Positions 1 to 63,576 of a stretch of DNA of 64,000 bases are shown here, piece by piece. Positions within the stretch are counted from its first letter, which is position 1, and each line of letters starts with the position of its first letter. The notes beneath the pieces were generated by a model. It did no database searches and was not told the origin of the DNA. It saw only the letters and a program-made list of their open reading frames with translations. Made by a program: the position numbers and the translations under genes. This DNA comes from Paraspadella gotoi (taxonomy: Eukaryota > Animalia > Chaetognatha), in NCBI GenBank assembly GCA_051294375.1, contig CM119271.1, forward strand, positions 15,630,770-15,694,769, in the 5' to 3' direction.

Positions 1-963
1 TTCCTTGAAACTTCGAGGTCAAATCAGGCGCCGCGGCGACTCTCATTAAGCCGTCTAAAAAAAACAATAGGAACAGGAGCGAGAAAACTCTTCCGAAACT
101 GATCCGTCGAGGGAAATGAGATAATCTGTAATGTTTGAAAGTGAGATGTTCTTTATAAGGGGATCCCATGCCGGCGCGGTTGTTGCCGCTGGCGCCAGCC
201 TCGCGACGGAGACGCCACGCGTCGTCGAATTCCTTGCGCATCTTTTCTTCGTCCCAATTTTGGAAGTTGTCGTCGTACGTGGTCGTGTCGCCGTATCTCC
301 TTCCTGAAACTGTAAATATTTCACAAATATTAAATAGGCAATGTAATAAGCTGAAAAAACTTGTTAAAACCATTCGCTCAAATTATACGTATGAAAGTTA
401 ATCTTTAATTGCCAAATTAATTGAATTCGCCTAACAGATAAACAGGCCTTAAACAGGACTTATTGGAATAAATAATGTTAAATATAAAGTTTTAAACGGT
501 ATCAAAACAAACAAATCAACAACGGGCATAAATAAAGACGACCTAAAAACTTACCCGTGGATCGGAAAGGATCGGCGGACAAAGTGAGGTCGTAATCTTT
601 TCGACTCCTTGCATTGGAAAGGACGTTGTAGGCCTCCGACACGGCCTTGAACCGTTCTTCCGCCTTCGGGTCGCCGGGATTCACATCCGGGTGAAACTCT
701 TTCGACCGGATGTAAAAGGCGTTTTTAATTTCGTCGGCCGAGGCGTTCCGCTCGAGTCCCAGAGTTTTGTAGTGATTGTCCACCGAGCCCGTGGTAGAAA
801 ATGCTCGACATCGCCACGCCAGTGTCACTGACGAGGGTTTGTGGGCGTCGGAGATCGAGGGGAAGATGGAAAGATGAAATGAGCGCAGGGTTGCGACGAG
901 ACGAGGGTTACCCTCCACGAGAGACGTTAATCTTTGCAATGACGTCAACGCCGAATGCATCAT
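1..963 (-). CDS. Mitochondrial-type DnaJ (type III, DNAJC4/DNAJC30-like); 3' end runs off the window
   Basis: Exon 1 (963-~555) encodes a presequence-like N-terminus and a J-domain (NHYKTLGL...KEFHPDVNP...RKDYD, HPD motif). GTAAG donor, CAG acceptor at 306-304. Exon 2 stays open to position 1 and includes a hydrophobic stretch (SLLFLLFFL). Confidence 0.85.
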
Positions 964-2256
964 TCCAGTTTTCTAAAGTCCGAAGAAGCGAAAATACGAT
1001 TTCGTCATCTTCCAAACAAAGTTTTTTTAACCAATTTACATGTTATACATTAAGTACGTCCGCTCGATGCCCAGAGAACGTACTTTGCACTTGTTTTGTC
1101 TCCTTGTATAGGGAAAAAAAAGACAAACAATTTTGACTAAAACTAAAACGATTAAAAAATTGCGGGAGGAAAGAGGAATTTGAACTTAAAAAAAAAAAAA
1201 AGAATTGAACTCTTTATGGAGAAAAGAAGTCAAGGTAAAAAAGAAAATACGCAGGATGGAATAAATTAAAACATGGTGGGAGTCGGGTTTCAATGTCGTT
1301 AATGTTTAGTTCGAAAGGCATTTTAAACCTGCAAAAACGGATTGCAAGATGAAAAGCATCACTTTTTATCGTTGATATAAATGATATGTAAACTAGTTGC
1401 ACGACGCGGGGGGAATAAAAGTGAGAATAATTAATAATAACTAAAATGCATCATTCACCCTGTAGCAGCTCGCTACGGCGTGAATGAATTCATTAGCGCT
1501 GATAGCGTCGGAATAAAACAAACTTCTTTCTTGAAGTGAACTTAATCGAAATGATAAAATAAAAATGGGTGTTTCAAAAATGGGGACAGGTTTGCGATGC
1601 AGGTTAATTAATATCAGCTGCCCGGATCAATTCGAATGTAGACTAGTTTTAAATCGACTTCAATTGGAAGACATCAGACTCAAAAACCTAATATTTTCTT
1701 TCCTTTTAAAGTTGGTAAACAACTACGTAAACATTGCATAAATTATGGACGATATAGATTATAGATTGTAGAATATCACTGTCGCTCTAAATCTAATATA
1801 TAATAGCGCACGCACTTTACTAATCTCTTTCTAGCTCATAAAACGAGCGAGTGGAATAACTTAATGGTATAAAACAATGATTGTAAATATAAAACAAAAA
1901 AAATCTCAAATCGGCGTCGTAGTAGATAGGATGTAGCGAGAGAAAAGTGAGAGAGGAAATGATGACGATGTGACACGCGACAAATTTGTAATGAATTATT
2001 ACTAAAATTTAAGAAAAATAATGATGTTCTAATCATTTTTTGCAAAACATTTTGAGGCTGAAACAGAGGAAAACGTGATGGACGTGAAATGAAGTGAAGT
2101 AAATGAGAATGAAAAATACAGTTTAAATTTAAAGTTGTAAAAAATGTTGAAGATTTAAGATTAAAGAGAAGCAGAATGTCAAGATTAAAAAAAAATAGCG
2201 AAGTCACTGCGTTAGGAATAAAAAACTAAAAAAAAAAAAAAAAGAATGACTAAAGA

Positions 2257-4136
2257 CTAAAGAGGTAGTTTCTTGGTTTTAGGCTTGAGCGTCATGCTGG
2301 GAAAGAAAGCGTTGAGACGACGCGACGGCGACGAGGGATTCGAGAAGTCGCCTCCGCCTCCGTCTCCATCGCCTCCTCCGGTGTACTTCAGGAACAACCG
2401 ATCTAACTCGTCGTCGTCCAGCGCCGGAAACGCCGTCAATCCCGGCGCCGTCGCTTTCGGCGTCGTCGGCGTCGATTTGGACGAAGAGCAAGAGGACGAC
2501 GACGACGGAGCGTTGCGGCATCGACGAGAGAATCGAGGCGAAGGCGCCGCCGACGACGCCGACGAAGACGGAGACGAAATGGCGACGCTTTCGTAGAGAC
2601 TAGGCGGTTTAGTTCCGCGGGAGAGCGTGCCAAACGGGCTGGCTCCAGCGGAGAGGTCAAAGGACCCGTTGGGGTCGGGGCTGGATGACCCGTCGGGGGC
2701 GCGAAAAGGAGAAGAGTCGCAAGCCCGACCCCAAGAGGCTTGATCGAGGAGGTGTTGTTGAAAGGCGGCCCACCAGACGCGATGGGATTCTGGAGAAGGG
2801 GCGGCGAAGATGGATTCGATGGCAGAAGCTGGAAGATAGGAAGCACCGCTCAAGGGGTCCACGACACGCTCGTCTTCCTCGGCGCCGTCGGCTTCGCGCC
2901 GCACAACGATCGCCTGCTCGTGCGGCGCCCGTTGCGATGCCGACGCCAGCTCGACTCGCCCGCGACAATTGACGGGGACCAAGATGTCGGGCGGTCGGCC
3001 GCTCTCCGCCGCCGATCGAGTCATCCAGCAGGAAAGGTGACGGTCGACGAGGCGGCACCAGAAGGGCGTCCACGTGGTCGTCGTCGTCTCTTCTCCGCGC
3101 AGCAACAAATCTCCCTCCCCGGCCGGTTTGACCTGATAGTAGTAGTTATTGAATGTTATTGTTATTGCTAATTAAATGAGGATTAATTCACTTAACAAAG
3201 GTCAACCTGAACGAGATGTACTTAAAACAAGGTTCAATCAAGTCTAAAAAAATTGTACTTAAGGTATTCCAATTTTAATCTACAATCAACTTACTAATTA
3301 ATTATCATTAAATTAAAATCAAAACTTTACCTTCAACGAGGGTCGGACCGTCAACCGACAGGCCACGTGACCAAAGAGTGGAAGGGAGTCGCGCGACGCC
3401 GCCGAATCGAGGACGTCGAGACGATGGGCGCGGACGTCGTCGTCGGCGTCGTCCAGACGAAGAGTCGTTCGAGCGATGAGAGAGAAAGATGGGGAAGAGG
3501 AAGAGGAGGAGGACGACGACGACAACCCGTCCTCTTCCTCATCTCGCATTCGAGACGCCAGACGTCGACCGACCGACCGACCAACGGAGGAAGTCACGTG
3601 GGTGAGTTTGCGACGAATGAGCGACGGAGTCATCGTCACCGAAACCTTGGGTAAGTTAGTTTTATTGACGAACGTAGTTTTGAGGTACTTCAGTGAAGAG
3701 AGCATTCGTATTTAGTAATATGAAGAAATAATACTGAATAATGGTTAGGAACTGTTAAACTTTTCTGACTCATCATTTCTCTCTTTTATAATAATTCGGA
3801 TGTTCATGAAATACAACGCAAAGATCGGGAGTAAAATGAGTAAAATCCATATTCTATGGCAACAGCCGGGTTGCCTGTGATGCCCGTTGGGATGGGGCTC
3901 TCACTGTAGGCTTTGGAGCTTCCGACCCTCAGTGACGCCTCCAGTCACTGGCGCGGTTACCCTAGGACGGTCTCGCTTTGCCAACGGAGAGGGAAGTCGT
4001 TAGGACTGTGGATGGAACACTACGCCTGGGATGGTGTGTTCCCCCTATGAGCCAATGGTATTGGCTGAACAATCGTGGACGTGAGGTGGTGTGAATATAC
4101 CACCACAATTCCATTAATTTTCTCCAACCTCCCTTT

Positions 4137-4219
<83 letters not shown>

Positions 4220-5193
4220 CTCTCTCACCTCGTCCAAATTCTGGGCGTAAATCTCAACGAGGACTTCGAAATCGGGCGAGACTCTCTTGAAGACGAATGG
4301 TTCGTCGAAGACGACGTCGGTGGAGGCGCCGTCGACGCAGGGCGCCAACGGAGAGTCGCGGACTTGAGCGCCGACGCGCGCCAAGCAAAAGACGGCGAAG
4401 CGGCGCGTCAAGCCGCGCCGCTTGAAATGCTCACGTTCGCCCCACATGAGGGGAACCCGGACGTCGGAGAGAGACGCCACCGCGCGGCAGGGGACGAGGG
4501 AATGGAGGGAGTCTGAGGAAGAAGAGGAGGGGGAGGAAGGGGCGTCGGTGCTGCCGAACAACGCCCGAAGAGTCGCGCCGGATTCGCGGCGTTGAAGTTC
4601 CTATCATAATTCAATTATTACATTAATAAGTTGAATACTGAATATTCATTATTAAACGATGAATGTAGATATTAGAGAATAAATATTGTACAGAGATATT
4701 ATAGCAGGGAGGTATATATCTACATGAGAAATTGTTACCCTGATTATTCATAACATGAACATCGGTTTAAAAAAGTTCAGAGGAGAATTAACTCAGTGAG
4801 ATTATTAAATAATATTAGATATAATATATATAATATTAGTTAATATCGTCCCTCCGCCAAAACCTTCTTCAACGCGTTCATCCTAAACTCCGACACTAAG
4901 AGACTCTTGGCGCCCTCCATCCGCTGCGTCGGCAGCTGGGCCACGTGCAGCAGCTTGGAGGTCCCATCTTGCATCCGAATCTCCCTGTGGATGCTGCTGC
5001 GAAGGCGCGTTGCGGCGTCGTCGTCGTCCGCGTCGTCTTCCACGAACTCATTGTCTCCGCAGCCGCCGCCGCTGACTTCGAGCGGAAGGAAGGAGCGGAG
5101 CAGCGGGGAACCGGCGGAGCGGGAGCGTTGGTGCAGTCGACGGGGGAGCGATTGGAAAGATTGGGGGAGCGGGAGACGGCAGGACTGCTCCAT
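2257..5193 (-). CDS. RTKN: Rhotekin (HR1 + anillin-homology + PH domain), 4 exons
   Basis: HR1-like IHREIRMQDGTSKLL...EGAKSLLVS spliced to ELQRRE; anillin-homology PCRAVASLSDVRVPLMW...FAVFCL and IRRKLTHVTSSVGRSVGRRL; PH-like WTPFWCRLVDRHLSCW. In-phase GT-AG junctions; TAG stop at 2257. Confidence 0.85.
3870..4060 (-). mobile_element. SINE-like repeat, family B copy 1 (RTKN intron)
   Basis: Shares CCATTGGCT head, CAGTGAC..GTCACTG hairpin, CCAAAGCC and GGGCATCACA motifs in the same order with 30550-30745; A-box-like TGGCTCATAGG. Confidence 0.5.
4145..4225. repeat. (CT/GA)n microsatellite starting at a 5' splice donor
   Basis: Visible dinucleotide run directly after GAG|GTGAGA on the minus strand. 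Confidence 0.95.
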
Positions 5194-5765: not shown

Positions 5766-8700
5766 TCACTCGGCCTCCGCCTTCACTTCCGCTTCGATCT
5801 TGACTTCCGCCATCGACGTCATCGACTCCAAAAAGGCGAGAAACTCTGGGGTGGAGGCGACGTACTTGAAGAGCGAAGAGAGGTGCTCCGCCTCCTCGAG
5901 GGGAAACCAGGCGAAGGCTTCGTGGATTTCCTTTTGTCTCACGAGTTGGAGGAAGTGGGCGGGAGGGTTGGACGCGCGCATTCGGGGCCGGCGCTTCCAG
6001 AGCGGGCGGGGTTTGCGGGAAATGTCGAAGAGGTCCTGAAATGTCATCAACGTTCATTAAATAAATGATTTTTGTACGTTTCTCCTACTATTTCTTCAAA
6101 CCTGAATGGGCTTTCCCGCGGCGCGGGCGACGTCGGGTTCGATCTGACGAAAGAAATAAAGAGTCGCGTCGCCTTTGTGCGGATTGAGGTTGTCGCCGTC
6201 CGTGCGAAGGACCGTCACCTGAAAAAAAAGACCAAAACGGATTGGACGAGTCACGGGAAGGATAAAGGCAGAGGACAACAACGCCGTCGCCTTCACCGTG
6301 CTCGATGCCTCCACGTCCTTGAGGCGAAGAGTGATGTCACACTCCTCCTTGAGTTCGCGACGAGCGCATTCCGCCGCCGATTCCAGGTGGATGCCCGTCG
6401 ACAACACCTTTTCAATTGTGATAAAATAAAATTGTTATATTTAAATAACTTAATCGCCCTGGGCTCTCAATATACAATAATAATCTAAATCGAGGCTTAT
6501 TAAAATTCTATGATTTGATCGCCTCATCAATTTTTATTTCTAAAGAATTCGACTACGCACGAAGTTTAGTCTTACAGTATTTTTTAAAATTATCCAATTA
6601 TTATTATGACAACCGCGATTGAAAACAAAAACTAGTTTAACAGAAATGGGCGATAGGAAAAACTCCAAAGGTCTCTCCAAAAGTGAATATTACGCAATGT
6701 TGATTAAATGATATTTAACTGGTGACGCCAACAACAACGAAACTGGGACACGCCCCTTCTTGACAGAGTACGGTCAGGATCGAGCGACGAACGACGCGGA
6801 AACCAACGCCAATTTGTCCAAACGATTAAGCGAAGAAGCCGATGGAGTGGACAAGGGGAAGCTCTTGGTGAGTTACACCGATATATCGCAATGGAACCAT
6901 TAACTGAAGCTTATAACTGTCATGTCTCTACTGAACAGAACTGCCTCTATTGGTTTCGGGTTCTCTGCTGTCCGCCCTGCGTTTGCTTCTCCCCTTCGGT
7001 CATGACCACGCGGTTGGCCTTCTTTCCTCCAAAGCCGAGTTATAAGATGGTGCCGCTCGCTCATTTGTCTAAAGACAGGCGAGAAGATGACATCAGTACT
7101 TTTACAGGCACCTTTGACATCTCATTCTTTTCATTCTAAATCTAGTGAATTTAAAAAAAAGAAAAGAAAGCGTCAGAGTCGCTTCGATCTCAACTACGCG
7201 TTGCAACTGAAACAATCGTCCAAGTGGCCCTTTGGTCCAGCGGAACTGGATAAGATCGAAGCAGTATTTGTGGAGACCAAACGAAAACAAGTAACGTTTG
7301 AGTAACGTTTGATTCAATCTAATTCAAAGAATCAGGTGGTAAGAGAAAAACTCGTCCCCCTATCAGTCGATCGCCTGTCTCCATTTCAAATGCGTGGATG
7401 AGCCCAAATACACGATCCTCTTCTCGCACACGAACGCCATGGATCTCGGGATGTCGGCTGCGCTGCTGCTGCAGCTAGGAGTTTTTCTCAACTGCAACGT
7501 GTGCAGCTACGACTACTCGGGTTATGGAGAGAGCAGCGGAAGACCGTCGGAGAAGAACATCCGCGCCGACATCGAGGCCGTCTTTCAAAGTTTGATATTT
7601 ATTCATTTATTTATGTTTGGATAAAGATTTAATGATAGTTTTTAAAATTTAATTCGAGATTCATTCTTATTCATCTTAATTTTGGTCTTTTGAATAGTTT
7701 AGTCATTCGTCAGTTGCCTCTTTCAATCAATACCCCCCCTTTAACAGTGCTTAGTGTGAGATACGGCGTACAACCAGGCAAAATCATTTTGTACGGCCAA
7801 AGCGTGGGAACGGCGCCGACTTGCTATCTGGCAGCAAGAAAGAAGGTCGCCGGGGTCATAATCGAATCCGGGTTTATGTCTGGAATGCGGGTAAACGAAT
7901 AAAGGATCGGTCTCTTTCCTCAACATCTCGCAACGACAACCAGTTTTATAGCTTCAATTCCTTATTGATCGACCCAGGTATTCTGTCCCAACAAGCGAGC
8001 GTGCGGTTGCTGCAGACCCGGACGTTGCGGAGATCATTGCTGCGACTCTCTGGTCAACATTGGCGAATGCCCAGATATTGGTAAAAATATAATAGGAAAC
8101 GCGAAAAAGAGACCAAAACAATTTAAGTGTGATCTCTCATTCTCAATCAGAATCGGTCGTCCTCGTCATTCATGGCGAAGCGGACGAAGTAGTTCACGTA
8201 AAACACGGATTCTACATTCAAAGCGAATGTCCCAACACAGGTTCTGTAAATGATCACTAAATTACCAAGGGTCAGACAAAATAGATTCGCCGAAATAGTT
8301 CCGACTACGCGACCTTGATGCGCCTCAATATCTCCTCCTTTTCAGTGGAGCCCCTCTTCCTCGAGATGGGTCGACACAACGACATCCACAGCTTCGTCGC
8401 CTACTGGTATCGACTTAAAAAGTTCGTCGACGTCGAGTTGCCCAAAAGAAACGTGAGGATTTTTGACTTTTTTATTTCGGTTCAGCAAAATTTTTGTCAA
8501 AATTATATTTTATTTTTGGTATAGATTACAGAATCGTTGCCGCCGCCGAAAAATTTTCTTCAAAACAATTCAAATGTAAGAGAATATAATTTTAATATAT
8601 GTGTGAGAGTCTTGATTGAAAGCTTGCAGGGACCTGCTATGTCATTATCTTGTAAGAGTGATGGAGGCCTTAAACCACCAAAGCCTGTCCAAAGTCAGGG

Positions 8701-11700
8701 GCAAGATAGCTTATTTATTAAATGAATGGATAATTTTTATATTGGTTGTACCAATTATATAATATATATTATACACAATTAAGTGTCATACTCATTTGTG
8801 TATCGCAAATATTCAGTTTTGGTTTACGTCACAGGTTTTACAATCGACGGAAATAAAGTCCAGTCCCGCAACGGATATCGAAGCATGAGATTTAATTAAT
8901 GTCATAAAAAAATATATTCTTAAAAGATGAATTATTATTCTTTACTCGAAACTGCGGTTTCGTTTTCGCCAGGGAAATTGGCTTCGCCATAAACACTGTT
9001 TATTAAGCAGTTGCGTCGAACAAAATTATAATGTTAAGCAAAGAGAAGCCAGAAAATTCAGGGGTTCAGACATGCGTATAGTTTTTTACAGCTGGGTAGC
9101 GAGGGCTAGCGAGGCTGTATGAAATTTTATGCCGTCCACCTCACCATCTTTTTTCTGCCAACCTGATGTCGAAATCCTCCGCGCGGAAGTTCCCAGTCTT
9201 TCGTCTCCTCTTCCTCCTCCTTCATTCTATCTCCCCTCCTCCTCATCTCATCGACGGCGCGCTCGGCCAACTCCGCGAATCCGTATTTCGTCTTCAGCGG
9301 AACCGAATCGTCTTCCTCGTCGCTTTTAAGCGAGTTCGTCTCTGGCGCCGTTTTCCCAGTGGGTTCTTCTATTTTATCTTCGTCGGGTTCGTCGTCGTCG
9401 TCGTCGTCGTCGTCTTCTGCGATGTCGGCAACCGCGGATCGCTTCGCTTTCTTCTCAGCTTTGGCGGAGGCGAAGAGGGCCTTCATTTCTGTAAGTAGAC
9501 CGATTCGTTATTATTATCTTATTAATCAATCATTGTATGAATCTGTTATTTTAAAATTATTTTATTCATTTAAAGAAAGAACCGGCGGCGGTTTTTCCTT
9601 CGAGCACTCCCGCCCATCTGTCCATCCACTTCCATTTCGTCAGAGCGAAAAGGGAGGAGAGGGAGGCTTTGTCCATTTTGGCAACGGCTTCTACCTCCTG
9701 CAATACATGATATATGACACGATTAAACTAAAAAACCAAATATATATTCGCAAAGAGAAAAGGAAGAGACCTGATTCGTCCAGCGTTGAATGTTCTTGAC
9801 GACTTTATTCACGTCGATTCTCATCGATCGAGTTGTCGATGAATCACGACGAAACTTGGGACGAGAACCGAAGACGTCCGCTAAAAAAAGTAATAACAAT
9901 TATTAATATTTATGGTTTTTAAGTTTTTAATAAGTTTTTAAAAACTGGAAGTTATCCCAATGAGGCAATACGCAAATTAGAGATTTAATTACTCGATCTC
10001 ATTTCATATTAAACATTTGATAAGTCCTTACATTCCTTACATTACTCCTTAACATTCAAAACCCACCAGCCCTCCTGAAGGCAAAGGCGAGCTCTTGGGC
10101 GACGGGTACAAAGGCGGGGGAGACTTTGTATCGTTTGAGGAGAACCTTGACGAGCATCTCCGACTTGGTGAGGACAACGACGCCAGCGCCCGTGAGGACG
10201 GGGGGAGTCGATGGGTCAACCTCGGAGGAAAAGGTAAGTATAATAGTATAAATTATCCTTTCCCGATTCGACGCAAAGTTATACTCACTTTTAAAATTCG
10301 CTCGCAACTGTTGGTAAGAAGAGTAATGCCGCCGCAAAATGAGACTTGCTTGAAAACAGCGTCGACGTTGACCAGCACCATCCCCGGCTCGAGCGGCGTC
10401 GGGCGACCCTCGGCGATGATCTCCAGTTTCTTTTCCGGATTGAGGCAGAGCAAAGGGCAGGAGAAAGAACCTGAGAAATTTATATCCAAGCATTTTAAAA
10501 GATGGCAAAAACAAAAAGATGGCAAAAACAAATTTAAAAGATGGCAGAAACAAATATTCATCACGAATCGTCACGAATCTTGTAAACAAATCTTCAAAAC
10601 AAATTTGTTCAAAGCCCGGCCTCTTTGAATCATCACCGTTGCCGACGACGACGACGTTCCTCTTCTCCGGCCACACCTCGACGACGATGAGGCGTTCGAG
10701 GATCGACTTGGGCACCGCCCAAGATTCCTGCGGCACCAACATCGTCTTCATCCTTTTACGCGGCTCTTGAAATTCCAGCAGCGAACGCTTTAACCCTTTT
10801 TATAAATTCGATGTAAATTAAACAACATCATATATCATATCAAATTATTCCACCTTGCGACGGAGACGCGACCTCGCGACCCAGAGCGTCGTGCATGACG
10901 ACTTTGACGATCGGCTCGGAGATTGATTTGTGGTCTTGTCCGTTCGTTGCTAAGAAACCGAAAAGAGAGGGAATAGTAAATGGTCTCAAATTTGGTCACT
11001 GGCATCAACTACCGTCTTTCTCAACCCAATTCATTAAGTCTTCCGCAGCTCGAAAAAGAGATTTTGATCTGGAATCGAATCTCTCTCGATACAAAAATAC
11101 TTTTCTCCCCACGAGATGCCAGACTGGATGCAAAGGAGCGCAGTTTCGCGAAACAAAAAATCCTGTCCGCTTCCGTCGTTGCTTAGCGACGTCGACGTCG
11201 CCTCTTTTTTTTCGCGCAAAGACTTCCGGGTGGCAAAAGAGACGGACTCCGATCCGTCCAACTGGCATCAAGGAGGTTTTCGATCCTTTTATGATTTCCG
11301 AGTCTTTGTACCTCAGTCTCGGTTATTATTAACGCAATCCGCGCGGCCTGAGTGCATTCGATGAGTCAACCGAGTTGAGGCGCCAGATTTCGTGACGTCC
11401 GGCGGAAGAGGAAGAGAGACACGATGCCTGAGGAATCGTCAACTGCCGAAACCCGCTCGTCAGATTAACGATTCGATTTTAATAATTTATGTTTAACCCG
11501 CAGGATATAAACAGAAGCGGTTAAAATCATATTCCGATCACCTCGCGCCCGTCCTTTCCTCCACGCCCCTTTCCACCCTGACTTACCCGTGAGGCCGACG
11601 ACGACCCCGAGTGCTCGACAGGCGGCTCTGGATGCGGATTCGACGGCCAAGTCGCCGTCGGGGTATTCCACGTCATCTTCGCTCGAGTATCGCGTCGAGT

Positions 11701-14700: not shown

Positions 14701-14824
14701 ATTCCGCCTGCAATAAAGCAAAAGCACCTAAAAATCTTTACAAAATATCTTTTGCTTCATGGCTTTTTTTTTCGCAAGGATTTCTTGTCGTACCTGGATA
14801 CGATTCGTAGCCGCTTGAATCCAT
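5766..14824 (-). CDS. Multi-dsRBD (about 5) + linker domain + Nudix hydrolase (viral decapping-enzyme-like) fusion protein, 22 exons, ~1,014 aa
   Basis: Exons: 14824-14794, 14707-14673, 14403-14333, 14258-14146, 14071-13898, 13657-13541, 13412-13298, 13181-13083, 13012-12881, 12758-12568, 12085-11854, 11737-11587, 10949-10854, 10795-10637, 10470-10346, 10220-10067, 9880-9771, 9697-9583, 9488-9163, 6407-6297, 6218-6102, 6035-5766. All junctions are GT-AG and in phase except a 1-nt shortfall in exon 3. dsRBD motifs: [61 protein letters not shown] and a degenerate fifth. Nudix: WELPRGG|...[17 protein letters not shown]. Confidence 0.75.
6646..8888 (+). CDS. ABHD17: ABHD17-like protein depalmitoylase (alpha/beta hydrolase), nested antisense in an intron of the dsRBD-Nudix gene
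   Basis: LCCPPC...[52 protein letters not shown] (Ser), [12 protein letters not shown] (Asp), GRHNDI (His). Multiple small introns; the first and last exons are less certain. Confidence 0.85.
8605..8756 (+). repeat. Dispersed repeat, family A copy (last ABHD17 intron)
   Basis: About 150 nt nearly identical to 63257-63409 (GAGAGTCTTGATT..AAGCTTGCAGGGACC..GGAGGCCTTAAACCACCAAAGCCTGTCCAAAGTCAGGGGCAAGATAGC..GTACCAATT). Confidence 0.9.
10497..10555. repeat. Short tandem repeat AAAAGATGGCAAAAACAAA x3 (intronic)
   Basis: Three visible imperfect copies. Confidence 0.8.
13204..13286. repeat. 12-bp tandem repeat (GAAATGGTTAAT) about x7, intronic
   Basis: Visible periodic array filling most of a 116-nt intron. 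Confidence 0.9.
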
Positions 14825-22209: not shown

Positions 22210-23795
<1,586 letters not shown>

Positions 23796-28531: not shown

Positions 28532-28740
28532 TCATTTAGCAAAGGGCCCCTTTTTCCCTTCGCGCTTCTTCCCTTGACCGTTGGCCGCCGGGAGAGCGTA
28601 AGAGTCGGAAAGATTTCCGAAAAGAATTTTCGCTTTTTCCTCCTCCGAAGTTTCTTTCTCCACGTTTTGTTTCACGCCTGAGGAAAAAAAAAAAACAATT
28701 TAAATAATTAAATAGATCAATCAAATACAATCGATCAAAT

Positions 28741-28832
<92 letters not shown>

Positions 28833-50000: not shown

Positions 50001-51076
50001 TTCCGGCGACCCCCTCGGCGACGTCTTCCAAAAGCCTCTTCGCGATCTCCACCGAGTCGCCGACGAGGGAATCGACCGAGTTGAGGTCGACGCCGAAAAG
50101 GTCGGCCAAGGCGTCGTCGTCGTCGTGTCGCCGAAATCCGGCTCCGTTGGATCTCTCGGTCAAATCGGCAAAAGACTCGAGGGCGGAACGCGTCACGGAG
50201 AGGCTTTTGGCGCGGGTGGCGGGAGTCTTGGTAGGGGGAGGAAAAAATAAGATTTTCATGTCTAATTAATTGGGTGTAGTAATAATTAATTGCGTGTAGT
50301 GCAACAAATATAAGAAATTGCTTATTCAATAACTTTGGACTTTGGACAGGCGATGGCGGATTAAGGCCTCCAAGCCCTCCATACTTTGGACAGGCGATGG
50401 AGGATTAAGGCCTCCATACTTTGGACAGGCGATGGAGGATTAAGGCCTCCATACTTTGGACAGGCGATGGAGGATTAAGGCCTCCATACTTTGGACAGGT
50501 GATGGAGGATTATAAATATTAGTATAAATTGTCTAACCTGCAACCTTGAGAGATATATATCCTTGCAAAGTTCGTAAAGATCGACGACGACTTTGGCATT
50601 GGATGCAAAGACGGTTCCATAGATCATCCGCTGAAGCATCTCAAGAGTGGTCAATTGCAGATCCGCAGGAAGATTGAGGGCCGATTGAACCGCCTCGATT
50701 ACCTGCGGTCAAATCGGAAAACTTCAATGATTTTACGACCATAACTATTGACTGAGGAATCAGTGACCCCCACCTGCGCCCCCGTCCACATGGCGGGAAT
50801 CTCCGAGGCCATCGAGGAATGGAACCGCCCATCGTGCCACATAAGTTGGACGGCGTCGACGGCGAGTTTGACGAGATCCGCTTGACCAGAGTCGAAGGCG
50901 AGCTTGAGAGGCTGGAAGCATCGCTGGCGCAGTCGAAAGGCGGGAGCGACTTTGGCGCATTCCGGATCGGAGAGAAGTTCGAGCGCCTCGTCCACCGAAG
51001 AGACGAACTCCGCGTCGAGCGGGGATCGAGACTCGTGATCGCGGAGGCGGAGGAGGAGACTCTCCACGGTTGCCAT
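44091..51076 (-). CDS. ARFGEF3: Brefeldin A-inhibited GEF 3 (BIG3/KIAA1244), with a ~5.2-kb terminal exon
   Basis: LRQRCFQPLKLAFDS, VESLRPVLQ|ALFHRIL, ILNADGLY, RKYFHLHEAFVKPFE, ELGSGWKPLF, GIFANAALDCVLCL, ENFYGDARRVRVGAR, DFDARPGLKILLQ. Confidence 0.88.
50339..50512. repeat. 35-bp tandem repeat about x5 derived from dispersed family A
   Basis: Unit ACTTTGGACAGGCGATGGAGGATTAAGGCCTCCAT at 50339, 50383, 50418, 50453, 50488; closely matches the reverse complement of the family A core. Confidence 0.9.
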
Positions 51077-51463: not shown

Positions 51464-53975
51464 TCAGATTGGCGAGCTTTTCCGGGCGTCGCCCGAATTG
51501 CTCATCCTCCTTCCCCAAAACAAGAAGAGCCCAGTGTAAAGCCTCGTGGACTGCTGCCGGAGGCTATCGTCCGAATGTCTCGTCAAGTTGAGCAGCGAGT
51601 TTCTCAATTGAGTCGATTTGGTTTCGGTGCAGAGAAGAGCGCGAATCGAGGAATCGTCGTCGACGTCGTCGTCGTCGTCGTCTTTGGCGTCGCCTTCGCT
51701 CCTTCGAACCGGAAAGGCCCCTAGTCTGGAATTGGTCGTCGCGGCTTCTTTGTTGACAAAGTCCATGAGGTTGGAGAGGAAGTAACAGACTCTCAAGGCT
51801 TCGACGCCGCCGTCGACGAGGCAAGCGCGGAGCCGGTCCGGGCAGTGGAGATTGAGGAGGGCCGAGGCCGAGGATTCGTTGGAGGACAGGTTGACGAGGA
51901 TCTGGAGAGACTGGGAGCAGAGGCTGGCGGAGGAGTCGGTTAACCTGAGGAGAGCGGAATCAATTGAAAAATGTTTAAATCTCTCGCTATATTTTTCTGT
52001 AAACATTGATTGAACCTATAATCTAATTTACATATTGTAGTATTTACTATATGAAAGTGAAAACCATTTAAACTTAAATTGTTGTGAATTCAGGCTTTTT
52101 TTTGGATTGTTTTCGCTTTTATCACTTAAGGAGATAATTACTTAAGATTTTAGTGAAAGAGCTTCAGCCTGATCCTACTTAATGTACTTAACGTACTTAA
52201 TGCTGTTGTTAGAAAATAAAATTCACACATATAAAAGAAAGACTCAAGATAAATTTTAAAATTAAGGGAAAAAAAAAAAAAAAAAATTGTATCGATATTC
52301 AATTGAATTAAATTGAATTGAATTCAATTCAATTTTTACGCTGTTATTGATACCGTTACCATTACTGTACTGTTACTGTTTTTGTATTCAATTTTTTTTA
52401 TTAAATTGTGTTAATAAGAAAAAAAATAGTCATTTTAGTCAAGTTTGGTCCTTATTTAAATTTTTTTTAAAAATATCGTTTTTGTTATTAATAAATAAAA
52501 AAAACCAAACTTTCATTAACGTCATTACTTGATTATGTCATTACGTCCGAGTCATGTTAAAAAAAAGGTAAAAAAAAGAAGTGTCGATTATTTTAAAATT
52601 ACCTTATGCAAAGAAAGAAAGAAAGAACCTGTGGTTTCTGTATGACGTAAATAGAAGTTACATTTTTTTAAACTTTTGCGACGCGCAGCAAGCGATTCTT
52701 CTCATTTATCATTACATAATTTATACTGTAATTAGTGATTATGTCATCGACCCTTCACCCAAAACTCCTCAAATCACCTGGCGGCGTTCTCGACGTCGAA
52801 AAGAAGTTCCGGCGCGAGAGGAAGAACGACGCCGTGAAATTTCGGCGTCACCGTCAAATTGGTGAGCGTCGCCAAAGCGCGGAGCCTGACGCAGACGTCG
52901 CCGCCCCGGGACGCCGCGCGGACGACGTCGACGAGAACGCGGACGGAGCGTTCCATGTAGTCTTGGTTCTCCTCGTTGACGGCCAAATTGGCAAGCGCCT
53001 TCATGGAGTGATCCTGGACGGTCGGGTCGTCGTCGCGCATGAGGTCGTTGAGGACAGGGATGCAGCCGGCGCGGCGGAGCAAGTACTGATTAGCGGCGAA
53101 GGCTGCGGCGTTGGCCACCGTCACAAGGCACTTGATTTTCCACTCGGCGTCGCCGCGGCGGAGCGCCGATGTCAGCGCCTCTGCCTCTTCGGGAGAGAAG
53201 ACGGCGGCGCCGTCGCCCTCTGGAAGGGAGGAGGCGTTGAAAGAGTCTTCCTCCTGTATTTAAAGATTTTAATTTAAATCCTTAGATTTAGAAGCTCAAT
53301 ATTAATATTAATACTATGTTTTTCCTAATTCGTACTTGTAATTCAATTAAATCGGTACTCATTGGTAGCCGGAATTAATCGGTTATTGAGACACCATATT
53401 TATTTATGTTCTTTTAGACAGATTTCGTTGTATAGTATCTGTTAATAGTACATAACATTTTAGAGTGCGTTTTTTCTGTATTTTTTTCTCTTGTTACTAG
53501 GTAAATTGGTCTCTTTATATACTTTTGTTCAGCATCTTTCCCGAACCTTGCTCTCCTCGGCGGAAATATCCAACGAGTCTTCTGCATCATCCTCGTCGTC
53601 GTCGTCGTCATCGACCCCGAAGACGTTCTCCGAATCCGCGGGCGACGCTGACGAAGGGTTGGAGGATCCTCCGACTGAGATGAGGTGCGCTTGGGCGATG
53701 TCCTCGCGAGTCACGGATTCGTCGCGGAGATCGAGACTGAGTTTTGAGGAGGGATGATCCTTCGTCCCCTGGACCTCTTGGGTCCCCTGAACCTTTTGGG
53801 TCCCCTGAACCTTTTGCGCCTCCCGCGTCGCCCCAACCCGATCGCCCTTCTCCTCCGCCCCTTTCTTCTCTTCTTTTCGTCCTCGCAGAGAATAATACCG
53901 CCAGGCGGCGACGGCGAAGAGAAAAGCGCCACCGCCGGTCGCCAAAAGCAAAAGCGTTCGATGACTTTTGTTCAT
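51464..53975 (-). CDS. ARMC10/ARMCX-like armadillo-repeat protein with N-terminal membrane anchor, 3 exons
   Basis: TM segment LLLLATGGGAFLFAVAAWRYY; ARM repeats LVTVANAAAFAANQ, KALANLAVNEENQ, ALATLTNLTV, LQILVNLSSN. Exons 53975-53547, 53252-52778, ~51944-51464 are in phase. Confidence 0.75.
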
Positions 53976-55036
53976 TTTTCGGAGGGGTTTTCGTTTTTAT
54001 TTTTATCTACGTTCGTCCGTTGGTCATCGACCCTTCGTGGCTTTTATCAATCATTTTTCCCGCTTTCCCTTTCTCTCTCTCCCGACTAATTTTGGGGCTA
54101 AAAAAAAAGTATAAAAAGAAAAAACCCGAATCGATGGACTTGAAAGCAGACGAACGAGTGAACTTACTTGTAAATATATATCTCCCAAAGAAGACATAAT
54201 TTTATTGAAATTTAATTATCACTATTTAGAGAGATCGAACTGAGAGCCGGGTTTTTAAACTCATTCGTTTCACCGTACAAAAGCTTATAGGGTAGTGCGG
54301 GGTAATTTGGAAGTAATCCGGCGTTAACTTCCATTCCAAACTTTTGTATATTTTTTATTGCTAAAAATAGATTTTTTAATGTAATATTATTTCTGCCCAA
54401 ATAATTCTGCTTAAATAATCTATACCATAACTAATAATTAATCGTCTCGTTTATCAGATATTAATATTTAAAAGTCATATTACATCAAATATGGCTGTGA
54501 AAGAGGCTTGAAAACGACTGCTCAAAGACGAAATTTATTTAATTTTATACGTCAGTGTTCCGAATTACCCCGCACTACCCTAAGCAGTCTGACGGTGAAA
54601 AAATAAAAACAAAAGCACAACAAACTCGGAGAAAAGGCGGATATATATCCGGTTATATATCAAACTGCAAACTAAAACAAAGAATCGAAGGAGATTCTGT
54701 TTTCTATTTAAAAACTGTAGAGGGGATAAATGTCACTTCGTTACCCAGGGACTTTTCTAATACGTTTTCTTACTGTATTTGACTACAGTATAAAAGGCAT
54801 TTAATATTTTATTTAATATTTCAAATAAACCAAGCAAAATCATCGAATAATCCAAAAAAAGAAATGTGTGAGAAAAAATATAGTAATCCCTCCGGTAATA
54901 AAATTCTGTCTCCTAAACGAGACAATTTTATAAAATCACATTTGACAGAGAGAAGAAGCAGACGATATTCTCATTTCCAAGGACACGCCCACTTCCGTTC
55001 TCCAAGCCGCGCCAATCCCAACACCCCCCCCTCTCT

Positions 55037-55777
55037 TCACTCCAAATCCATGACGAACTCGTACATCTTATTGTTGAAGAAAGGAATGACGGTGCCCAAG
55101 TTTTTGGTGCAGGCGTGTCGGCACACCTCCGACTTGTTCCTCCGCACGTTCTCGAGAAACTCCGCCTCGAAGACGGAGACGCCGAAGCGAATCTTCTTGT
55201 AACGCTGCCGCCGCAGATCCTCTCTCGCGGCGCGGAGCAGCGCCGTGCCGACCCCTGAGTTTCTGTACTCTTTCCGCACGAAAAAGTGGAGCAGCAACGC
55301 AGTCTGCCGATGGAAAGGCGCCGTGGCCAAGTGGCCGATCACCCGCCGATTCTTGTACATCGCCAGGTAGACGTGGTTGCCGCGGGCGCCGACCTCCGAG
55401 TAGAAATCGCGGAGACGACGATAAAGAATTCTCTTGGATTTGAGTTTGTAGTGATTGAGATAAACGAGGATGGCGGGGATGACGGTGAGGGGAGACAGAG
55501 TCAAAGAGATCGTCCACGATTCCACGAAGAGATTCACGCCGAACATGATGACGCCGAGAAGGAAAGGGACGAGAACGCCGCCGAAAACCACGCGATACAC
55601 GTTGAGAAAAGTCTCGTTGTAGCCCATCATCAGCATCTTGACGAGGGGTTCGAGGCGTTCTTCTCCGCGGTCGTCGGCCGAGAGTCTCGTCACGGTCACG
55701 TCCTCGGTCGTGTCGAACTTGATCGGCGACCGCTTGGGGCGGGAGATGCCCGCCAGGACTTTGAACACAGACGTCAT
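55037..55777 (-). CDS. Membrane-associated GNAT N-acetyltransferase (NAT8/camello/NAT14-like), single exon
   Basis: Hydrophobic hairpin followed by GNAT motif A (HFFVRKEYRNSGVGTALL). Confidence 0.75.
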   Translation of the reverse strand: MTSVFKVLAGISRPKRSPIKFDTTEDVTVTRLSADDRGEERLEPLVKMLMMGYNETFLNVYRVVFGGVLVPFLLGVIMFGVNLFVESWTISLTLSPLTVIPAILVYLNHYKLKSKRILYRRLRDFYSEVGARGNHVYLAMYKNRRVIGHLATAPFHRQTALLLHFFVRKEYRNSGVGTALLRAAREDLRRQRYKKIRFGVSVFEAEFLENVRRNKSEVCRHACTKNLGTVIPFFNNKMYEFVMDLE

Positions 55778-56187: not shown

Positions 56188-58080
56188 CTAAGATCTGCAA
56201 TTGTTCCGCATGAGCTTTTTAAATCCTCCCTTGACTCGATCTCGAACGAATCCAGTGATGGTGAGTCCGCAGACTTTGAAGTCTTTCGTTTCGCAATCGA
56301 GGAGAAAAGGAAAGTGATTGAGGAAGGCGTCGACGCACTGAGCGATGAACACCAACACGTAGGCGTCCTTTTTAGGAGGGAAAAGGGGTCGGGGTCGGGG
56401 TGTATATGGATATCATTTGCATGTTGTCGTATGTGGATCAAGTATAAATATATTTTTAGTCAGTTTCGTTATAAGATTATTCCTAAAAAATTGGAAACCA
56501 AAAAAAAATTTATCCATTCAATAAATACATGTAATCCATCTTTTCGCTATATAATTTAACCACGTCGATTAAACGCAATAAGGATTATAAGCAAATGAGA
56601 TTGAAGAACTATCTCATTTTCAATGAAATCGAATGTCACTTATAAAGTTATAAATAAAAGTGGACGAAGTACAACAAATACTAAAAGTACTACAAATAGT
56701 AAAAAAAAACAAACTACAAGTTCCGAAGCCCCTAAAACCTACAGGTGAGAAGCCCCACCCATAATCCCATATAAACATTAAAGACAATCCAACTATCGCC
56801 ACAACTTTATTAATCGATCTCGACCATCTGAGGTCAACTCCAGCTTAAATCGTTCCCCTCCCCCCACAATTACCTTGATATCTTTCGGCGCGGGGGCATA
56901 TCGATAAAGGAGCTTGCCAAAGTCGTAGACTGTCGAGGCGAAGAGTCTGTATTCGGTCGTCGATTTGAGGAGAAGATTGGGCGTGGTCATAGAAGCGAGT
57001 CCGTGCATCTTTTGCCGAAGAGAATCGGGAAGAAGAATCGTCCGATCGTTGGGCAAAAACATGGCGCTGCCTCCGTGGCGCCAGTCTTCCGACTCCTCGG
57101 CCGTCGGCGGCGCCACCGCGGACCGATCGTCGAAGGATGCCGGCGCCTGAGCGAAGGCGCGCGGCTCCGAAGGAGATCTCAACGCCACCTCGAGACCGTC
57201 TCCGTGCCCGACGCCGCGCCAAGCGTTGTGAGACGCGTCGTCTTCGTCGCTTACGACTTGACAATCGTCCTCCGGCCCCGCGTCTTCCTCTTTCACGGCG
57301 ACGAGAGAACCGGCGCGACGAATCTTCGAATCCCGCGCCTCGTAGACGGCGCCGGAGGAACGCCGCTTTCTCGATTTGAAACGAGAAGGCGCCGAAGAAG
57401 GGAAAACGGCGCCGGGATCGAGACCGTTGACGTCGACGACGGAAATGGGTTCGACGCTGACGACGTCGTGACGCGACGCCGCGGCGACGCTGGCGGCCGG
57501 TGGGCGTTCGCGAACCTGGAGGAGAGTGACAGCTTAAAGGTATTTATATTAATTATCATAATAATGATAATAATATATCCACCGGGTACGCAATTCATAA
57601 TTATTTTTTTTCGTTCAAGCTTTTGAAGGTTTCAATTAAAATATTACTATAATTACTGTTAATCACAAGTATTCCTAAAAACTATAATGAAGTCTTTTTT
57701 AAAGTTTTTTTTAAAAACTTTCTGAGGCTAAGAAGACTAAATGATAAGCATTCCAGAGAAAAAAATTATTTTGCCGGCTTATGTGCATTCGCGGGATACA
57801 TTTAAAGAAGGGAAATATTTCGGCGCACCGTGGGTGTGTCCGTGTCGACGTCGAGCCTTGAGTCGGCGTCGGTCGGTCGAAGGGCGCCGGACGAGTAGGC
57901 GTCGCACAAGTGACCCGCGCCGGCGAACTTGCGTCCTTCCGGCGTCTCGATAAGGACGAAAAGATTGAGGTCGGTCAGCTGACTCAGCTTGACGGCCGCC
58001 TCGACCAGGATTCGTCCGAAGGAGGCCTCCAGGTTGTGGAGGTGGTTCACCAGTTCGATCAGACCCAGTGACGACGACAT
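56188..58080 (-). CDS. Uncharacterised protein with divergent MADS-box-like N-terminus, 3 exons
   Basis: Exons 58080-57829, 57514-56874, ~56367-56188 join in phase 0. ILVEAAVKLSQLTDLNLFVLIETPEGRKFAG resembles the SRF-type core IMKKAYELSTLTGTQVLLLVASETG; basic KSRKRR stretch; helical C-terminal region. Confidence 0.6.
56720..56765 (+). repeat. Fragment of SINE-like family B
   Basis: CCGAAGCCCCTAAAACCTACAGGTGAGAAGCCCCACCC resembles CGGAAGCTCCAAAGCCTACAGTGAGAGCCCCATCCC, the reverse complement of ~3890-3925. Confidence 0.45.

Positions 58081-59006: not shown

Positions 59007-59009
<3 letters not shown>

Positions 59010-59049
<40 letters not shown>
59010..59049. repeat. (CT/GA)n microsatellite directly after the EDF1 stop codon
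   Basis: Visible run abutting TGA on the minus strand. Confidence 0.95.
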
Positions 59050-59053
<4 letters not shown>

Positions 59054-60068
59054 CTTCTTGGGTTCGAGAGGCTTCCCCATGTCCTTCCCTCTCAACTTGA
59101 CGCCGAGAGCTCGCTCCATCTTGGAGATGATCTGCTGGTTGGGAATCGCTTTCCCTTGTTCATACTCGTTCACGACTTGAGGCTTCTCGTTAATCTGGAA
59201 ACGAAGAGAGGTCAGGGTAGAAGGTAGAGCTTTTGTAGAGAAGTGAAGATCGAAAGTAAGTTTTTTTAGAGAGGATGAGTATCTAGAATATTAGTCTTTT
59301 TAAAGGGATGAGGATACAAGATGAGTTTTTTCTGGAGAGGTTAGGATTAAGGTTGAGTTTTTTTTTGAGGAAAGCGAAGATAGAAGATAAGGTTTCTGAG
59401 AGAGATGAGGATCGAGGTAAGGTTTTCGTTGAGGTTTGTTCACTCACCTTGGTGGCGAGTTCCTTCTGAGTGAAACCTTTGTTGTTGCGAGCCTGCTGCA
59501 TTACGATGCTGAGGCTGCGGCTGACGTGGTCGTGCCGCAACTCCTCGGATTCGGCGTCGAGGACCGAAGTGTTCTTGGCGGCCGAAGATTGTTTGTTGCC
59601 GCCGGCGCCGAATTTCTTAGTAGTTTCAACGTCGCCGCCCTGACGTCGCGCCTGATTTATCGCCTGACAAAAGTGCCACGGAGGAATCATTCGCTTCTCA
59701 GTATCTAAAGTGTAGCCTTTCAGACCTCGCGTCTACTTTCCCTCTAAACCATTCGCTTTTATAGGTTTTTACCCGGTCTCGTGTTCCCTGGTGATTGATG
59801 TCCAAAATAACCAAAACCGGGTTAATCTTATTGTTGGTTCTTTATTCAATATATTATATTATATTATATTATATTATCCTCACATTAGTTTCTCAATCTC
59901 ATTCCACCCTTCCCATACTCCCCCCGCTTTTATACCCTTCGTCTATCACTCTCATATCACTCCCCGATCAGTCTTTTCCCTTACTCTGTCGCTCTTGAGC
60001 GCGCTCTGACTCTGAGGCTTCTTTCGCAGGTAGGTGACCGTGTCCCAATCGTCCCCGCCCGATGCCAT
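59048..60068 (-). CDS. EDF1: Endothelial differentiation-related factor 1 / MBF1, 3 exons
   Basis: [37 protein letters not shown]|[38 protein letters not shown]. Confidence 0.96.
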
Positions 60069-60555
60069 TTTCTTTATTTCTTTAGTTTTGTTTTTTGTTT
60101 TCAGGATTGACTTCTTGTTTTTACTTTTCGTTTCTTAAAACGAAACAACGAACGATGCAAAACGTTTTGTAACTTGATAAAAATCCCGGGAAAATGATAA
60201 AAAACTTTTTTTTTTCTCTCTCGACGTTTCTAACCTGGACGCGGGAGGGGAAGACCCGATTTAAAAATCTGTCGATCAATACTATTTTTATTTTTCTATA
60301 ATTATATCAATAAACGATCAGTGTAATAATCTATGAAATTGAATAGTTTTGAGGCGCTAATAAAATGACGACTTAATCACAGTTGTGGTGTTTTTTTTCC
60401 GACGTCAGTCTACATTTTTCGATTTAATCTTTTTTTGATTCTTCGGCGACGATCGGCGATTGGAAGGTGAAGGGATAAAACGAAGGGAAGTGGAAAGGAG
60501 GACGAAGTCACGAACCGATGGCACAAAATCACTAAATCTCAATCTCGGGGCGAGG

Positions 60556-61801
60556 TCAGCCGATGACCCCTTCTTCCTTGAGCTTAGCGATGAGAGTGGG
60601 GACGTCCTCGACCTTCTCGCCCGCTTGACGCGTGGGCGGTTCGGCGACCGAGAGGATCTCGACGCGCGGCTTCATGTCGACGCCGAAGTCAGATGGAGAC
60701 TTTTTATCGATCTTCTTCTTCTTCGCCTTCATGATGTTGGGAAGAGTCGCGTAGCGGGGCTCGTTGAGTCTAGTTGGGAGGGAGAGGGGTTTTATTGTAT
60801 GAAATTGATACTAAAGTATAAAAGAATATATTTAATATACGATGGAGATGAAGTGATAGATCGCCGGAGACGACAGTCTTAACCCTATAACTCTGTTAAC
60901 CTCAAGTCCGCCGTAATGACGGCAGGGATGCTGCAGGCGATCGTCTCGAGTCCTCCGTCAATTTCCCGCGTCACTTTTAACCCGTCCCCGTCTTTCTCCA
61001 CCTCAAAATAGAAATGATGGGGAAATGATGTAGTAGACCTCAAGGTCGCAAGTCGGTCATGATGTTTACAACAACAGCAGTTTCGTTCCAGCATTCTCCT
61101 GCACATCCGCGCATAGGAAAGTTTAATCCTTGCCGAGATTCGGCAATAAATTTGGAAAGTAGGTTCATTCATAAAATATTCACCTTCATCAAATCTAAAT
61201 GTAAGAAAAGAATGTCATCCTTTAAAAATACGAAAAATTGTTCTAGTTCTAGTTCTCGGACATCACCAATAAAACCGGACAACCAATCACCTTTGAAGCG
61301 AAAGTTGCCTGAGGCCAATCGAGGACGGCCGCCGTCATCTGACCCGTTTGATTGCAGTCGTCATCAATGGCCTGTTTGCCCATAATGACGAGGTCGGCCT
61401 TCTCCGCTTTGGCGACGGCGGCGATGAGTTTGGCAATTTGAAGAGGCTGCACCAACTCGAATCCCGCGGCGGGGACTTCGATGTGGATGGCTCTGGTGGG
61501 TAGAGAGAAGAGAAAATAATCGTGGATTTCTTCAAAAATCAGATATCTCCACTCACCTGTCGACCCCCATCGCCAACGCTGTCCTGATGGTCTCCTGACA
61601 TTGTGCGGGTCCGACTGAGACGGCCACAATCTCCTCCACGATCTTCTTCTCTTTAAGGCGGACGGCCTCTTCCACGGCGATCTCGCAGAAGGGGTTCATG
61701 CTGTGTTTGACGCCATCCGTCACCACGCCCGTCTTGTCCGGCTTCACGCGGATCTTCACCGCGTAGTCGATTACGCGTTTCACTCCCACCAGGGCGCGCA
61801 T
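60556..61801 (-). CDS. ETFB: Electron transfer flavoprotein beta subunit, 4 exons
   Basis: [76 protein letters not shown]. Confidence 0.97.
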
Positions 61802-62087
61802 TTTTTTTTGTTTTGAAAGGTTTATTTATTACCTAGAGAGGACGCATTACTGTTTTTTTTTTCACAAAAACCTGGTCGATTTTTTTTTCAAAGAAAAAGA
61901 AAACACAAACGGGAATTTTAAATATAATACTTGAAGAGATTCAACTACTTCTTAATGTTAATAGGGAGAAAAAAAAACCAACTCTGGAAGCTGACTTATA
62001 AATAAACAACCGCCTGGATAATTTTAAACAAACAAAAACGGCGCTAAAAGTTTGTATCCGGCGCTGAATGGAAAAAAGAAGAGGCGC

Positions 62088-63576
62088 TCAATCGAAGAGA
62101 GAGAATCCCATGTCTTCGTCGGATTCTTCCTCGCTCTCCTCCTTCTTCTCCTCCTTCGCTTCCTCTTTCTCTTCGGGGGCAGCGCCGCCGCCGCCGCCGG
62201 CCGACGCGGCGCCGCTCGAGGTGGCGACTCCTGCGCGATGAGGCGTGAGTTATGATTAAGAAAGATCTTTGAATTCACAACAGGTCATTTTTAATTTTTA
62301 ATTTATTAATAGATTCATTCATTCATACATCCATTCATCCCTCCCAACCTGCGCCGACGGAGGCCGCGGCCGAGCCGAGGGACCCGAGCAAAGCCCCGAC
62401 GTCGACGCCGTCCAAGGCTTTGGCGAAGAGGGTCGGCCAGTAGGGCTCGACGCTCACCCCGGCCGCCTTCAAGAGGGTGTTGATCTTGTCCGCGGTGATG
62501 GAGATTCCTGAAGAAAATAGAAGATGAACTGAAGCAGATTAATTTGTGGTTCGTTTCAAATGAGATTGAGTTCTTCAATCTCATTTACATATTGTAGCAG
62601 TTTAGATCATTTCTCATATCTTTTGATACGGTTTTCATAGTAGTCTTATTTTACGGTTTTAATAGGTTTTAATAATGATTTAGTTTTCCAATTATTATTC
62701 AAATATTTTATTGGAGAATTTACAAATGGATCTAAAAGTCTCGATGATAGTCCGTTATTAATTCCTGCTATTTGTTATGTTATATCATTTTCGGTGCTGT
62801 CACTCTACCAATAATACTATACTCTCTGGATGGTACTGATTTGGTAATAAATAAAACATATTACTGAAAAAAAAAGGATTTCAGGGTCGGTCTGAACCAT
62901 TATGCTTTTTTCTTAGCTTACCAATTATAATATGTTAATCATTATGCATCTCGTTTAAAACTATTAATGTTAAGTTAACAATACAATAAATAATGAAATT
63001 AACCACTACTGTATTACTTCTCTCGCTCAGTTAAGCTTATCAGATATTAATTCATAGACGTTATTAAGTATAAGAGCAAGAAGAACAATGCGAGTGTTCT
63101 ACTACTAACCATAAGGTCAACAATAATAATAATAATATAATCTATCTAATACTTAAGGGAGTGGTCTTTTCATATAATTGAAACATTCTTTAAAATATTT
63201 TCCACTTCATTGATAGGGAAGCCAGGTACTCTGGGAGTGAATAAACGGGACTGTGAGAGAGTCTTGATTAAAAGCTTGCAGGGACCTTCTTATGTAATTA
63301 TCTTGTAAGAGTGATGGAGGCCTTAAACCACCAAAGCCTGTCCAAAGTCAGGGGCAAGATAGCTTATTTATTAAATAAATGGATAATTTTTATATTGGTT
63401 GTACCAATTTCATAAGATACCCCCCCCCCGTTAGAGTGGTGCATCGTCCGGGAAAGAGTCGCTCTCATTAACAATAACCAATCATGCACAATTGCAATAT
63501 GCAAAATGCTAATCTCACCATCGTCGTGAAGGATGAGGGCGGCGTAGATGCAGGCCAGTTCGTCGTTGGACGCCAT
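62088..63576 (-). CDS. RPLP1: 60S acidic ribosomal protein P1, 3 exons
   Basis: MASNDELACIYAALILHDD..ITADKINTLLKAAGVSVEPYWPTLFAKAL..EESDEDMGFSLFD*. Confidence 0.97.
63195..63409 (+). repeat. Dispersed repeat, family A longest copy (RPLP1 intron 1)
   Basis: 3' part nearly identical to 8605-8756; 5' part homologous to the inverted copy at 19545-19670. Confidence 0.85.

Follow-up and report, generated by a model that had tools for sequence, protein, structure and literature searches.

Trans-spliced operons in chaetognaths and other animals

The chaetognath Spadella cephaloptera is counted among the animals with trans-spliced operons (PMC2776167). In this species, leaders of 36 nt have been described together with a validated RPS14-PCNA operon (PMC2481426), in which the two genes are separated by a gap of 291 nt, with three bases between the poly(A) site and the acceptor, and for which a PCNA EST begins about 107 nt before the coding start. 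Other neighbours in the BAC table of the same paper are 199-868 nt apart. Its 119 annotated leader-bearing genes include those for V-ATPase subunit E and FAM108B1 (ABHD17 family), and the ribosomal protein set is said there to be trans-spliced. Table S5 of that paper, which describes the 158-kb BAC 35A21, places each of the 14 named cellular genes on the same strand, and its five opposite-strand rows correspond to transposon proteins; the table covers SwissProt-matched genes only and has gaps of 10-29 kb.

In Paraspadella gotoi, 10,197 of 21,072 genes are reported to be trans-spliced and 18% of genes belong to operons, which are enriched for protein metabolism (PMC12460157). Trans-spliced genes outside operons number 6,457 versus 3,740 operon genes. 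Operons were delimited in that study by less than 250 bp between annotated genes, the longest comprising nine genes, and an operon-specific leader was not found; the main text uses none of the words "orientation", "same strand", "intergenic" and "nested". Published chaetognath genomes measure 257 and 794 Mb, the latter being the F. enflata assembly (bioRxiv 10.1101/2025.03.14.643333).

Outside the phylum, tunicates use a common leader pool for operon and non-operon genes, with intercistronic medians of 1 and 31-33 bp and with operons that in Ciona contain at most six or seven genes (PMC7986045). C. elegans operons contain two to eight genes with core cellular functions, and one of them, CEOP3416, spans an opposite-strand gene located in an intron (PMC1657053). 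In a literature search covering few subscription journals, no animal operon of more than nine genes was found.

A head-to-tail run of 15 genes

The window, which is the whole 64,000-nt stretch of DNA analysed here, was annotated with a small hidden-state predictor combined with hand building. The resulting gene models comprise 15 protein-coding genes, all on the minus strand and arranged head to tail, in agreement with the original prediction of 15 co-oriented, non-nested genes; when a nested plus-strand hydrolase (see below) is counted, 15 of 16 genes are on the minus strand. Translation is open in 12 of the 15 models, those of BLTP2 and of a dsRBD-Nudix gene being incompletely closed and that of a DnaJ gene leaving the window. 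Sixty-six ORFs were scanned against Pfam, yielding a match on at least one exon for 13 of the 15 genes and none for the MADS-like gene or for the RPLP1 exons. Among plus-strand ORFs of at least 50 aa outside minus-strand exons, the nested hydrolase alone is convincing. Predicted plus-strand genes that turned out to be shadows of minus-strand exons were dropped. No tRNA was found in the window.

The first gene of the run within the window is RPLP1, encoding the 60S acidic ribosomal protein P1 (62088..63576, 3 exons). It is followed by ETFB, for the electron transfer flavoprotein beta (60556..61801, 4 exons, Pfam ETF), MBF1/EDF1 (59048..60068, 3 exons, Pfam MBF1 and HTH_3), a gene for a MADS-like protein of 357 aa and unknown function (56188..58080, 3 exons), an intronless GNAT acetyltransferase gene (55037..55777, Pfam Acetyltransf_1), an ARMC10-like armadillo gene (51464..53975, 3 exons, Pfam Arm_2), and a gene that we take to be of the BIG3/ARFGEF3 subfamily (44091..51076, Pfam Sec7-like_HDS), with 6 exons of which the last is 5.2 kb long (44091-49284). 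Next come BLTP2/KIAA0100 (Hobbit; 28532..43396, ca. 26 exons, Pfam Hobbit on 5 of them), an intronless pyruvate carboxylase gene (PC; 24272..27967) whose start corresponds to residue 1 of two homologues, the gene for V-ATPase subunit E (22210..23789, 5 exons, Pfam vATP-synt_E), an SLC22-like MFS transporter gene (18891..21282, 4 exons, Pfam MFS_1 and Sugar_tr) and SRP68 (15409..18397, 10 exons, Pfam SRP68). The run ends in the window with the dsRBD-Nudix gene (5770..14824), a rhotekin/anillin-domain gene (2257..5193, 4 exons, Pfam Anillin) and the DnaJ-domain gene (1..963, Pfam DnaJ), which extends past the window edge. The start codons of the MADS-like, BLTP2, dsRBD-Nudix and rhotekin-like genes are guesses of the models.

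Several of these models show individual features. The N-terminus of the MADS-like protein resembles SRF/MADS proteins at the level of a lead (atlas score 0.80-0.81). The 5' end of the rhotekin-like gene is uncertain: in the region 5253-5193 (minus strand) an ATG located 11 nt past a TAG opens a frame of ca. 68 codons, different from the reading frame of the gene, which may be an upstream ORF or else point to an indel in the assembly or to a 5' exon that is missing. PC (3.7 kb) and GNAT have no introns, the small neighbouring genes having 4-6 introns per kb; for both genes, as for the 5.2-kb exon of the BIG3-like gene, retrocopies or intron loss are possible.

Stop-to-ATG gaps, which include the UTRs, range from 286 to 1293 nt, very close to the 290-1,300 nt that had been predicted. 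From RPLP1 to the BIG3-like gene they measure 286, 487, 967, 410, 1061 and 387 nt, and from the latter to DnaJ 694, 564, 482, 927, 493, 584, 576 and 1293 nt; the four spacers above 900 nt are those before the MADS-like, ARMC10, SLC22 and DnaJ genes. The RPLP1-ETFB gap (286 nt) is close to that of the Spadella RPS14-PCNA pair (291 nt), and the run resembles the P. gotoi and Spadella operons both in its same-strand neighbours separated by a few hundred bases from stop to start and in its housekeeping content (a ribosomal protein, SRP68, V-ATPase and mitochondrial enzymes). It differs from the P. gotoi operons by its 15 co-oriented genes, against a maximum of nine, and by the lack of a leader among the contig ends listed (see below). 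Apart from V-ATPase E and the ABHD17 family, the genes of the run are not among the 119 leader-bearing Spadella genes (PMC2481426), and the locus or its orthologue may already figure in the P. gotoi operon gene table.

A chance of about 2^-14 had been attached to the common orientation. This value is correct for a single window, but over 21,072 genes about 0.6 (0.64) same-strand runs of 15 genes are expected per genome by chance. Such a run is therefore not rare genome-wide, and the signal lies in co-orientation together with 14 short gaps.

The window proteins appear to be of chaetognath origin by similarity, RPLP1 being the one named gene on which this assignment rests. Over its whole length RPLP1 shares 85% identity with the protein of S. 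cephaloptera versus 61-63% with those of three molluscs and annelids (Biomphalaria, Physella and Owenia); S. cephaloptera is also the best match of an RPLP1 exon (73 hits) and its sister in the RPLP1 tree, with weak support (84/80). PC shares 64-69% identity with named molluscs and insects and 77-82% with three other proteins, with which it forms a clade apart from insects, annelids and molluscs in a 48-row tree for which 47 sequences were picked from 120 hits. A metagenome scan with a PC relative returned two loci (67-70% identity) that are uninformative on gene order.

An antisense gene nested in a dsRBD-Nudix gene

The product of the dsRBD-Nudix gene, ca. 1100 aa long, contains several dsRNA-binding domains and, at its C-terminus, a Nudix domain whose Nudix box is interrupted by the intron 9162-6408. 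This intron contains, on the plus strand, an alpha/beta hydrolase gene (6891..~8500, 3' end approximate) presumably of the ABHD17 family, as judged by its motifs. The hydrolase has seven or more exons, with an open 7-exon model of about 350 aa, an atlas score of 0.92-0.93 and Pfam matches only below the cut-off; a PDB search with one of its exons gave a single chance match (E 0.41). In all four homologues of the host protein that were tested, the residues aligned to either side of the intron are contiguous, indicating that the nesting is real and that the minus-strand run is unbroken. This nested plus-strand gene would require its own promoter.

A search with the Nudix exon retrieved only six relatives, five of which have a dsRNA-binding domain. 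The dsRBD-Nudix protein is possibly lineage-specific, and its participation in the processing of RNA caps or ends would be a guess.

Contigs joining neighbouring genes

The contigs assembled from run X1, which is guessed to be an RNA run and contains 99% of the PC words, were compared with window positions 44001-64000; three other runs (X2-X4) gave scattered pieces only. At least nine minus-strand introns are joined in X1 contigs, among 15 joints listed of 101: both introns of RPLP1, three in ETFB, two in MBF1 and two in the MADS-like gene. The ARMC10-like gene is also found on a spliced contig. One spliced contig of 1687 nt contains most of ETFB, the whole 487-nt spacer (60069..60555), which it spans without a gap, and MBF1; the assignment of five joints of equal depth to this contig agrees with its length and with the depths of the bins. 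The MADS-like, GNAT and ARMC10 genes are distributed over three contigs, whose overlaps measure 30 and 29 nt, the GNAT gene being on an ungapped contig (54552-56095). The breaks between these contigs fall in a T run and in a MITE-like element (54288..54580, terminal inverted repeats of ca. 23 nt) of the GNAT-ARMC10 spacer, within which two contigs meet, and not at candidate acceptors. Among the pieces listed (32 of 2993), no base is left uncovered at ETFB-MBF1, MADS-like-GNAT and GNAT-ARMC10, corresponding to 3 of the 14 junctions.

The MBF1 introns have 427 nt at a depth of 0.1 versus 577, which argues against DNA there; other introns have depths of 3-63. Contigs cannot reveal RNA ends, and a two-gene contig is not the demonstration of a single transcript. 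Since contig depth is a flat mean and residual intron depth amounts to 3-63, the bridge could be due to rare read-through or to DNA.

No spliced leader was present among the 24 loose contig ends listed of 662, X1 contributing 6 of the 24; short tips are, however, often lost during assembly. The window itself contains no full leader copy, only scattered matches of 7 and 9 nt, and no Rfam family was found in it.

Candidate acceptors and spacer composition

The original prediction pointed to pyrimidine-rich AG acceptors lying 10-45 nt upstream of six start codons. The six AGs do occur 9-43 nt before the ATG of ETFB (61834-61833), GNAT (55801-55800), BIG3 (51112-51111), PC (28012-28011), V-ATPase E (23815-23814) and DnaJ (974-973), but they are weak and their occurrence does not exceed chance. 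When scored with a matrix derived from 59 introns of the window, they rank at the 3rd-19th percentile of the corresponding acceptors, and the 15 nt at the AG contain 9 pyrimidines for BIG3 and 8 for GNAT. The matrix set was obtained from 79 introns that passed a GT-AG check, 21 of the dsRBD-Nudix gene being dropped and one corrected intron added; being built on cis introns, it may undervalue trans-splice sites. A YAG is found within 45 nt of the ATG in 11 of the 15 genes versus 9.97 in shuffled sequences (P 0.39), with no enrichment over shuffles within 60 or 80 nt either, and a TAG in 9 of 15 versus 6.8 (P 0.17). Five of the six AGs are TAG, the intron acceptors being CAG in 41 of 59 cases and TAG in 7 of 59. 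The 59 introns have donors that are degenerate after GT (GTGAGG, the commonest, in 6 of 59) and acceptors with a weak pyrimidine tract and a G after the AG in 42 of 59.

Over a longer distance, the best acceptor within 150 nt of the ATG scores above shuffles, only 11 of 2000 reaching it. It also scores above 35 windows taken upstream in the spacers (P 0.04) and above 60 intron windows (P 0.003), but not above the opposite strand (P 0.07). The advantage over shuffles is lost when two outliers, the rhotekin-like and MADS-like genes, are dropped, 257 of 2000 shuffles then reaching the score. The sites actually used for splicing may be farther from the ATG than the six AGs, as suggested by the Spadella PCNA EST, which starts ca. 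107 nt before the coding start.

Base composition switches from T-rich to A-rich 60-120 nt before the ATG, and upstream ATGs are depleted, with 1 observed versus 8.7 within 45 nt. Both features mark 5' UTRs, though not the way in which these begin. Canonical poly(A) hexamers occur at variable distances from the ATG and are absent in 3 of the 14 spacers; TATA-like words and the CpG ratio gave no usable signal in the spacers.

Transcriptional organization of the run

Operons with trans-splicing are the best reading of the run, because leaders and operons are published for the phylum and because spliced contigs cross several of the spacers. The polycistronic transcription originally proposed is strengthened by these two points; its other part, resolution by a leader at the AGs, is met by no leader among the ends listed, by AGs at chance level and by contigs that run unbroken through the 5' regions of GNAT, MBF1, ARMC10 and the MADS-like gene. 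We give somewhat better than even chances to a run made of a few consecutive chaetognath operons (about 2-5 genes) that are transcribed as multi-gene precursors and resolved by the leader. RNA polymerase II would read through several genes per precursor; 3' cleavage would end each upstream mRNA, and the spliced leader would be added to the following one at an AG just behind. In each spacer, the T-rich 3' UTR of the preceding gene would then take up most of the length, an A-rich and ATG-poor 5' UTR of ca. 30-120 nt would come next, and the two UTRs would be directly or nearly adjacent, as at Spadella RPS14-PCNA. Promoters would be likeliest in the four spacers above 900 nt. The scant intercistronic DNA of the Ciona and Oikopleura operons would likewise give continuous RNA cover, although tunicates represent another phylum with another leader. 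The SL2 operons of C. elegans share core functions and an intronic opposite-strand gene with the window, but differ by their operon-specific SL2 leader, which P. gotoi lacks, and by runs that are shorter than the present one.

Each gene could instead have its own promoter in the spacer, contigs joining neighbours through overlapping UTRs or rare read-through, and leader addition, with removal of a short outron, might still take place at many genes. This situation, which we regard as rather unlikely, would be in line with the excess of trans-spliced non-operon genes over operon genes in P. gotoi and with a 15-gene run that, by orientation alone, is not rare genome-wide; a promoter would fit into gaps of 286-1293 nt, and the nested hydrolase implies at least one promoter inside the run. 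It accounts poorly, however, for 14 gaps that are all short although genomes of the phylum reach 257 and 794 Mb, for gap lengths that match the validated chaetognath operon junction, and for the complete assembly of the ETFB-MBF1 spacer next to introns that are empty. Ordinary 5' UTR introns ending at the AGs before the ATG, with no trans-splicing involved, are highly improbable: donor-like sites scoring above the first quartile occur in 9 of the 14 spacers, but the other 5 hold none and, among the contigs listed, the regions upstream of GNAT, MBF1, ARMC10 and the MADS-like gene are crossed unbroken. At GNAT, whose AG alone among the six is crossed by a contig listed, and where an intron ending at this AG would have spoken against the original prediction, the contig runs through ungapped.

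At the other extreme, the whole run could be transcribed as a single unit, comprising 15 genes or more over at least 63 kb, from a promoter at or beyond RPLP1. Every gap is of 1.3 kb or less, and contigs abut across the 1061-nt GNAT-ARMC10 spacer, but they meet there inside the MITE-like repeat, and the contig data are confined to 44001-64000, nine junctions lying below 44 kb. The one-stranded Spadella BAC adds to the case, within the limits of a table restricted to SwissProt-matched genes with gaps of 10-29 kb, and the longest operon annotated in P. gotoi has nine genes. We consider a single unit improbable. The preferred reading of a few consecutive operons would make this cluster probably one more example of a published chaetognath feature, and the locus would be mainly a good place for testing it.

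The Spadella BAC table hints that long same-strand arrays are common. An extended version of the single unit, to which we attach a small probability, would see long directional arrays in chaetognath chromosomes, the present one being a polycistronic unit of at least 15 genes and at least 63 kb that holds an antisense gene with its own promoter and in which PC and GNAT, as possible retrocopies, would use the shared promoter and leader. One unit of this size would exceed the known operons of P. gotoi (nine genes), C. elegans (eight) and Ciona (seven). If the run is a single unit, or if such arrays are common, the 250-bp rule would underestimate operon size in chaetognaths, and gene arrangement in an animal would come near to the directional gene clusters of protists.

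Repeated sequences in the window

A repeat of 129 nt occurs in two copies that are 96% identical (8638-8766 and 63291-63419). The summed X1 contig depth exceeds 16,000 at the second copy, indicating a high-copy element. Finally, intronic minisatellites are located at 38175-38864 (46 nt), 50328-50511 (35 nt) and 13188-13297 (12 nt).
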